A stretch of 64,000 nt of DNA from Pyrinomonadaceae bacterium (lineage in GTDB: Bacteria > Acidobacteriota > Blastocatellia > Pyrinomonadales > Pyrinomonadaceae), in assembly GCA_028284415.1 (NCBI GenBank), contig JANQRU010000007.1, positions 969,243 to 1,033,242 on the forward strand. Direction: 5' to 3'. The translations under genes were made by a program, and so were the position numbers. The notes under the pieces were generated by a model. The model did no database searches and had not been told where the DNA came from. It worked only from the letters and a program-made list of their open reading frames with translations. Positions 37,911-38,375 of the stretch are shown piece after piece. The stretch's first letter is position 1. Each line of letters opens with the position of its first letter.

Positions 37911-38375
37911 ATGAATAAAGCAATTTATAGTTTCTTCTTGCTGTTGACCATCATAGCTTTTAGTCAACAAATATTTGCCTGCACATGTGAAATTGAGCCA
38001 ATCCGAAAAGCTTTTCGCAAATCTAAAGCGGTTTTTATCGGCAAAGCAATTAGCATTGATGATAAATCTTTAGACAAAAATAACTTTTATCCGTTTGAAG
38101 TCACATTCAAAGTGAAAAAGAGCTGGAAAGGAGCTAAAGAGGATAAGATAACTGTCAAAGCTGCTTATCCAAATAGTTTTGAAAATCAGTGCATAAGTTT
38201 CAAAATTGAAAAAGGAAATGAATATATGATTTTTGCAAGAACTGATAAATTGTTAGTTAAAACAGAATGCTCAAATTCTTACATTATTGAACGGGACGAT
38301 AAATTCCATCAAAAAAATGTAAAGAAGCTAGACAGCTTTTGGTTTCGCTTATGGACTAAAATCTACCCTTTTTAG
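37911..38375 (+). CDS. Secreted TIMP-like (NTR/OB-fold) protein, putative metalloprotease inhibitor
   Basis: Predicted cleavage IFA|CTCE gives an N-terminal Cys-x-Cys. [25 protein letters not shown] aligns with TIMP [50 protein letters not shown] aligns with TIMP [32 protein letters not shown]...TEC aligns with TIMP KEYLIAGKA...LCD. Confidence 0.55.
   Translation: [154 protein letters not shown]

Follow-up and report, generated by a model that had tools for sequence, protein, structure and literature searches.

Introduction

The tissue inhibitors of metalloproteinases (TIMPs) are treated as an animal family in a survey of their evolution, in which bacteria go unmentioned (PMC4860685), and a 2021 paper on Listeria found no record of bacterial TIMP-like proteins (PMC8235301). 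The Listeria monocytogenes protein Tim (LMRG_00714) is bacterial, has a predicted TIMP-like fold, and acts at the cell envelope (PMC8235301). Here, we analyzed a 64,000-nucleotide stretch of the genome of a Pyrinomonadaceae bacterium, a soil acidobacterium (contig JANQRU010000007.1 of assembly GCA_028284415.1, positions 969,243 to 1,033,242; referred to below as the window). The gene at positions 37911 to 38375 of the window encodes a protein of 154 amino acids (aa) with a predicted export signal, and profile homology together with the predicted fold supports its assignment to the TIMP-like/NTR superfamily. A description of this bacterial family was not found in the searchable literature, where the Listeria paper was the sole bacterial TIMP-like match; the "TIMP-like OB-fold" superfamily label of structure-based databases may already tag such proteins.

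The protein shares with the N-domain of animal TIMP-1 to -4 (MEROPS I35, PF00965) the profile homology, the OB/NTR fold, a predicted mature Cys1 followed by Ser/Thr2 and Cys3, two predicted ridge disulfides, and the motifs F/W-K-G and E-Y-L-I/V. It differs from the animal proteins in being bacterial and single-domain, in having Arg36 in place of a cysteine of the third disulfide, in ending with an aromatic tail or, in relatives, a C-terminal transmembrane anchor, and in scoring below the Pfam cutoff. In the noninhibitory NTR modules (the PCOLCE NTR domain, netrin/sFRP, C345C, agrin NtA, and meteorin; PF01759 and PF03146), the domain is internal or C-terminal and its first cysteine has no free α-amino group, whereas the cysteine discussed here is the predicted first residue of the mature chain. 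Listeria Tim is a lipobox lipoprotein that lacks sequence similarity to TIMP and is encoded beside the metzincin Mtz, while the present family has a signal peptidase I site, TIMP sequence homology, and no adjacent protease. The hookworm netrin-like excretory-secretory protein AceES-2 (PDB 3nsw) is eukaryotic and gave a much weaker match; to our knowledge, it is not an inhibitor of matrix metalloproteinases. Functional analogues of the inhibitor proposed below may be seen in the serralysin inhibitors AprI, Inh, and SmaPI (MEROPS I38). These are bacterial periplasmic β-barrel proteins that insert their N-terminal residues into the cleft of the metzincin; their eight-stranded barrel is unrelated, they have no N-terminal cysteine, and they are encoded in the operon of the protease, unlike the present gene, which lies outside any protease operon. 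Inhibitors of this type have been described as interacting "in a similar fashion" to TIMPs (PMC8235301).

Results

The protein family shows TIMP homology and a predicted NTR fold

Taken alone, the 154-aa protein matched PF00965 (TIMP) with an E value of 0.01 and 16.0 bits, below the curated cutoff of 23.1; this match spans residues 23 to 120 against profile positions 2 to 107. NCBIfam yielded nothing relevant, and neither did a phmmer single-sequence search of the PDB yield a match. With the single sequence as the query, a word-indexed protein search recovered nothing beyond the protein itself; with a profile, it recovered seven proteins. The family was defined by an exhaustive HMMER search over 1.84 billion cluster representatives, which retrieved 945 relatives at an E value of ≤1e-3 and 87 at ≤1e-10, nearly all of them 140 to 190 aa long. 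A 100-sequence family alignment (A1) served as the basis for all column and cysteine statistics given below. When the A1 profile was run against all PDB sequences with hmmsearch, TIMP-2 was the best match (E value of 9.5e-4), with the alignment beginning exactly at TIMP-2 Cys1, and hhalign of A1 against the TIMP-2 N-domain gave a probability of 90.8% and an E value of 1.2e-6. Individual Pfam scans of the 100 members assigned 18 to PF00965 (best E value of 1.1e-7), 2 to PF01759 (NTR), and 1 to PF03146 (agrin NtA); no other Pfam match recurred except for five weak ones to NRG2_N. Judged from these profile comparisons, the similarity of the family to TIMP is beyond chance.

In both hhalign and hmmsearch, C24, C26, C94, and C120 were aligned with TIMP-2 C1, C3, C72, and C101. 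The WKG motif fell on TIMP-2 FKG, EYMIF...TEC on EYLIA...TLC, and ...NQC on ...AVC. A first-pass annotation of this DNA, made from the letters alone, had proposed an open reading frame (ORF) with Cys-x-Cys at the signal peptidase site IFA↓C, a residue-for-residue alignment of the mature N terminus with TIMP-2, and two further aligned blocks downstream. The ORF is real and its translation matches, the site has the statistics of signal peptidase I (see below), and the three alignments were all reproduced in the same register. Nearly invariant positions in A1 are C24, F42, G44, W72 (92%), K73 (99%), G74 (96%), C94, C120, L140, and R146.

The AlphaFold model of the protein reached a pLDDT of 92.2, compared to 42 for a single-sequence model. 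The predicted fold corresponds to the five-stranded OB-fold (NTR) barrel with flanking helices that is characteristic of TIMPs, and the top neighbors in structure searches were exclusively TIMP, PCOLCE NTR, NtA, C345C, and meteorin NTR domains. The predicted protein thus combines the NTR fold with an N-terminal CxC and an internal cysteine framework, as is found in the NTR superfamily. No significant match was obtained in the viral structure library; therefore, a phage origin, as for the Listeria mtz-tim pair, is not supported. The TIMP C-terminal domain with its three further disulfides is absent, since the protein ends 34 residues past Cys120 and has only four cysteines. Single-domain TIMPs occur in some invertebrates, and hence the C-domain is not strictly defining. 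Because the Pfam threshold is missed, the third disulfide and the C-domain are lacking, and inhibition is something that we infer, we regard the protein as a bacterial variant within the TIMP/NTR kind and did not file it as a TIMP.

The N-terminal cysteine follows a predicted signal peptidase I site

The N terminus of the protein (MNK, a 14-residue hydrophobic core, and SQQIFA) is a typical Sec signal and is directly followed by CTCEIEP. In the family alignment, position -3 is occupied by A (40), V (24), T (13), I (11), S (6), or G (4), together 98%, with L in the remaining 2; position -2 is Y (27), F (19), or L (15) in 61% of the members, and position -1 is A (60), G (15), or S (14) in 89%. 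These columns follow the AxA rule of signal peptidase I and not a lipobox, and the motif L-[AS]-[GA]-C is not found in the 154-aa protein, which reads Q-Q-I-F-A-C. Cysteine occupies position +1 in 92% of the members and position +3 in 66%. Position +2 is Ser (38) or Thr (36) in 74%, the same two residues as at TIMP position 2. Cys24 is thus predicted to be residue 1 of the mature protein, with a free α-amino group.

Cysteines are lost and relocated in TIMP-like pairs

All four cysteines are present in 59 of the 100 members. C26 is replaced in 22 members by a cysteine two residues before C94, so that the total remains four, while 9 members keep only C24 and C94, and 6 keep only C26 and C120, having lost both C24 and C94. 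In TIMP-2, disulfides are formed by C1 and C72 and by C3 and C101. Since loss and relocation occur exactly in the pairs 24-94 and 26-120, the cysteines are predicted to form disulfides with TIMP connectivity, which argues against a CxC metal site and against a lipidated cysteine. Alignment and pairwise loss thus point to counterparts of both TIMP disulfides, Cys1-Cys70(72) and Cys3-Cys99(101). The first-pass annotation had named OB-fold/NTR topology and compatible cysteine pairing as checks on its reading of the protein, and on both counts the predictions agree with TIMP.

The C terminus carries an aromatic tail or a transmembrane anchor

The C-terminal sequence L-[DN]-S-F-W-F-R-x-W-A-R-I-Y-P-F-COOH is shared by about 98 of 148 representatives. 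In at least 11 others, including those from Bacillaceae, a short L-G-x-G-K linker stands in place of this tail and leads into a transmembrane helix followed by a basic tail, a sequence layout that indicates type I topology and a domain on the outside of the cell. No N-terminal anchor was found in the members examined, and anchoring at the C terminus only may reflect a constraint that keeps the N terminus free. The aromatic tail is a candidate envelope retention element. AlphaFold predicts it to be helical with high confidence, and it may simply pack on the domain; its hydrophobic moment of 0.45 was not significantly above that of shuffled sequences. The tails of two relatives look like the Myxococcus-type C-terminal sorting signal, and Myxococcota are probably among the family hosts.

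Family members with organism labels, on the few of which the taxonomic breadth rests, come from Acidobacteriota (Pyrinomonadaceae and Chloracidobacterium), Bacillaceae (Bacillus and Lederbergia), and Gracilibacteria. Named members are annotated as "hypothetical protein." The Gracilibacteria homolog (P0152; 300 aa, locus L009, positions 2530 to 3432) consists of the TIMP-like domain, a Kazal serine protease inhibitor domain (PF00050), and a coiled C-terminal part, a domain order that resembles a compound inhibitor; a protein with a transglutaminase core is encoded beside it. A JGI metagenome protein of 233 aa (P0021) carries the domain in tandem duplicate, with four cysteines in copy 1 and none in copy 2.

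The gene has no conserved protease partner

The coordinates of the gene, of its parts, and of the other features discussed are collected in Table 1. The gene begins 46 bp past a DUF2891 gene and is followed by rplU-rpmA-obg, with a near-consensus promoter (TTGACT-17-TATAAT) at 38377 to 38405 between the gene and rplU. The Obg protein encoded here shares 82 to 88% identity with Obg of metagenome-assembled genomes labeled Pyrinomonadaceae or Aridibacter, which fits an acidobacterium of this group as the source of the window. Its GC content is 31.6%, compared to 37.3% for the window; GC3, checked for signs of recent horizontal transfer, was unremarkable. In a related genome (L016), DUF2891 directly adjoins rplU, the family gene is absent, and tblastn detected no remnant of it. 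In another relative (L015), M14, Band_7, and rplU genes are neighbors, and the family gene is absent there as well. We conclude from these arrangements that the family gene was inserted at this site and that M14 is part of the conserved backbone.

Table 1. Coordinates of features in the window
Feature	Position	Strand	Remark
TIMP/NTR-like secreted protein, complete gene	37911..38375	+	154 aa, stop codon included; ORF list and sequence
Predicted signal peptide, residues 1-23	37911..37979	+	Signal peptidase I type site I-F-A↓C; family column statistics
Cys24-Thr25-Cys26, predicted mature residues 1-3	37980..37988	+	Equivalent to TIMP Cys1-Thr/Ser2-Cys3; aligned with TIMP-2 C1-S2-C3
Predicted NTR/TIMP-like OB-fold domain, residues 24-141	37980..38333	+	
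Trp72-Lys73-Gly74, near-invariant family motif	38124..38132	+	Aligned with TIMP-2 F-K-G
Cys94, putative disulfide partner of Cys24	38190..38192	+	Equivalent to TIMP-2 Cys72; alignment and covariation
Cys120, putative disulfide partner of Cys26	38268..38270	+	Equivalent to TIMP-2 Cys101; alignment and covariation
C-terminal aromatic tail, residues 140-154	38328..38372	+	Ends exactly at the C terminus; family conservation
Family paralog, 150 aa	44561..45013	-	Family HMM E value of 3e-19 (search of all window ORFs); downstream of tsaD
M14 peptidase	24670-27075		
M91-like HExxH protein	27200-28987	+	No signal peptide
M20 peptidase, secreted	52472-53785		

Secreted metallopeptidases of the M14, HExxH, and M20 types had been pointed out near the gene in the first-pass annotation. 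Enzymes of these types are indeed encoded in the window, but their genes are 9 to 14 kb away and not linked to the family gene, and the HExxH protein lacks a signal peptide. The window contains no gene for a metzincin (HExxHxxGxxH). We rejected the neighboring peptidases as evidence for a target, since they are distant, none is a metzincin, and relatives keep M14/Band_7 (L015) or DUF2891-rplU (L016) without the family gene. The target protease is not encoded beside the gene.

The 595-aa HExxH protein, encoded beside the M14 gene, has a HELSH motif, a match to Pfam Peptidase_M91 ("Effector protein"; E value of 1.5e-9), and a basic Pro/Gln-rich N terminus. Divergent from the DUF2891 gene and about 200 bp upstream of it, the minus-strand gene at 34805 to 36544 encodes a 579-aa protein with an N-terminal OmpR-type winged helix (Trans_reg_C) followed by TPR repeats and without a receiver domain.

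The neighborhood sample is small and comprises about 14 independent loci; a narrower alignment had yielded 7 genome and 4 metagenome loci. In two acidobacterial metagenome-assembled genomes (L002, positions 7084 to 13420, and L005, positions 4833 to 9711), the family gene lies between a murQ-like SIS domain gene and genes for a sodium-solute symporter and a GH3 glycosidase, a cluster that looks like one for amino sugar or cell wall recycling. Both L004 and the L018/L021 synteny group have a gene for a cytoplasmic-type M16 peptidase nearby. We rejected an association with M16, as it was seen in two independent contexts of about 14 and the L004 enzyme has no signal peptide at its start. In L022, an M4 protease gene is located 1.8 kb away on the other strand, along with a sensor kinase gene. 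The neighbors are succinate dehydrogenase genes in L011 and, in L020 (Lederbergia), a radical-SAM gene and a MacB-type ABC transporter gene. An inhibitor-protease gene pair of the I38 or mtz-tim type was not found: the flanking genes are DUF2891 and rplU, and loci L002 to L024 share no conserved partner.

The rpmA-obg gap contains a conserved stretch

Between rpmA and obg lie about 0.9 kb free of ORFs (39112 to 40025), and a stretch of about 520 nucleotides within this gap (39380 to 39960) is strongly conserved in three Pyrinomonadaceae genomes (counterparts at 3716 to 4277 in L016 and 4252 to 4801 in L014; L015 has no gap). The stretch has a promoter-like sequence (TACTTGAC...TAnnAT) upstream and a terminator hairpin with a T-run at its end. 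RNAalifold predicted 143 pairs, 38 of them with compensatory double changes, from three sequences only. No Rfam 15 family matched the stretch at the gathering threshold or at an E value of ≤1. The stretch is a candidate for an unannotated large structured RNA. Positions 39240 to 39361 contain four DnaA-box-like sites (TTWTNCACA; three of them TTTTCCACA) within 122 bp, out of 13 in the whole window, and L016 and L014 retain two of the four. The GC skew has no clear switch at this position, which makes a DnaA-regulated promoter region more likely here than an oriC.

Discussion

We propose that the protein acts in the periplasm or on the cell surface as a single-domain N-TIMP-like inhibitor of a zinc endopeptidase, a function that we consider plausible, with belief and doubt about equally balanced. 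After Sec export in this diderm acidobacterium, signal peptidase I would cut behind Ala23 and leave Cys24 as residue 1 with its free α-amino group. Through the predicted disulfides Cys24-Cys94 and Cys26-Cys120, the N-terminal strand would be fastened to the loop surrounding Cys94, and the equivalent of the TIMP inhibitory ridge would result. The N-terminal segment would then enter the active-site cleft, where the amino and carbonyl groups of Cys1 would bind the zinc and Thr2 would point into S1', resulting in stoichiometric inhibition of the enzyme. The aromatic tail, or the transmembrane helix of relatives, would keep the C terminus of the protein attached to the envelope, leaving the N terminus free. 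The inhibitor function gains support beyond geometry because the Gracilibacteria homolog fuses the domain to a Kazal inhibitor domain. The TIMP-like inhibitor suggested in the first-pass annotation is thereby partly supported: its fold and geometry agree with alignment and model, and its function is credible to the even degree stated above.

Several observations weigh against an inhibitor. Most NTR-fold domains (netrin, sFRP, PCOLCE, C345C, and agrin NtA) are binding modules and not inhibitors. The third N-TIMP disulfide (Cys13-Cys124/126) is absent, as TIMP-2 Cys13 corresponds to Arg36, a position with R/K in 96% of the family, and a C-terminal partner cysteine is missing. Residue 2 is Glu or Asp in 16% of the members, and about 6 to 8% lack Cys1 and its partner, indicating that the fold has at least one role without the TIMP N terminus. 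The paralog in the window is one of them. It shares 29% identity with the 154-aa protein (BLASTP E value of 5e-13), lacks the equivalents of Cys24 and Cys94, carries about 10 additional residues ahead of the first cysteine, and ends in LGKGKTCIDLEG without an aromatic tail. A TIMP-type mechanism is impossible for this N terminus, and in this organism the fold must therefore serve at least one further purpose. Finally, a conserved gene neighbor or protease partner was not found in the approximately 14 independent loci (L002 to L024), and the occurrence of M16 in two contexts and of M4 in one is not clearly above background.

A noninhibitory NTR-type module, whose fold and disulfides would be structural only and which would bind an envelope polysaccharide, a peptidoglycan fragment, or a protein in the manner of agrin NtA, PCOLCE NTR, or C345C, would account for the latter points, and we regard it as a serious but rather unlikely alternative. 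It leaves unexplained why a cysteine sits at the exact +1 position of a signal peptidase I site and is followed by Ser or Thr at the frequencies given above, and why every anchor in the family is placed at the C terminus. Moreover, the best sequence matches are TIMPs and not other NTR modules. An inhibitor or immunity-type protein that directs its TIMP-like wedge at another enzyme class (the zinc peptidoglycan hydrolases M23/M15 or nonmetalloproteases) and not at metzincins seems improbable to us. The lack of a metzincin in the window, the stand-alone and patchy gene placement reminiscent of orphan immunity genes, the Kazal fusion, and the action of the TIMP-like Listeria Tim on the cell wall (PMC8235301) would fit such a protein, but an effector or hydrolase gene is adjacent in none of the examined loci, and the idea is purely inferential.

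Binding of copper or zinc by the N-terminal Cys-x-Cys on an OB fold, as in periplasmic CusF/SilF-like metallochaperones, is very improbable and was rejected on cysteine covariation: the covarying pairs are C24/C94 and C26/C120 and not C24/C26, as expected of disulfides rather than a CxC site, C26 is moved elsewhere in 22% of the members, and metallochaperones were clearly outranked by TIMP/NTR domains in the structure search. A lipoprotein with an acylated lipobox Cys24, which would make the TIMP-like N terminus irrelevant, is suggested by the cysteine directly after the signal peptide and by the precedent of Listeria Tim, but it was rejected as barely credible on site statistics (Leu in only 2% at -3, mostly Tyr/Phe/Leu at -2, and Gln at -4 and -5 in the 154-aa protein) and on the joint loss of Cys24 and Cys94, expected of a disulfide and not of a lipid anchor, and relatives bear separate C-terminal anchors.

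With the N-TIMP-like inhibitor as the preferred function, we tentatively put forward a broader proposal, in which our doubts exceed our confidence: TIMPs may not be an animal invention, and a prokaryotic TIMP branch of at least 945 clusters at 50% identity may consist of genuine N-terminal-Cys inhibitors of zinc endopeptidases, tethered to the envelope by their C termini and guarding envelope proteins against the cells' own or competitors' secreted metalloproteases, with the Y-P-F-COOH tail as a new C-terminal envelope retention element. A large bacterial family with TIMP homology, the predicted N-terminal geometry for zinc chelation, and two predicted ridge disulfides would offer a simple, expressible model of a minimal TIMP mechanism and would bear on the origin of the NTR/TIMP fold. 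One inhibition assay would give a function to hundreds of clusters of "hypothetical proteins." If the proposal is true, the family would point to protease control at a so far unrecognized level in soil bacteria with many secreted peptidases.
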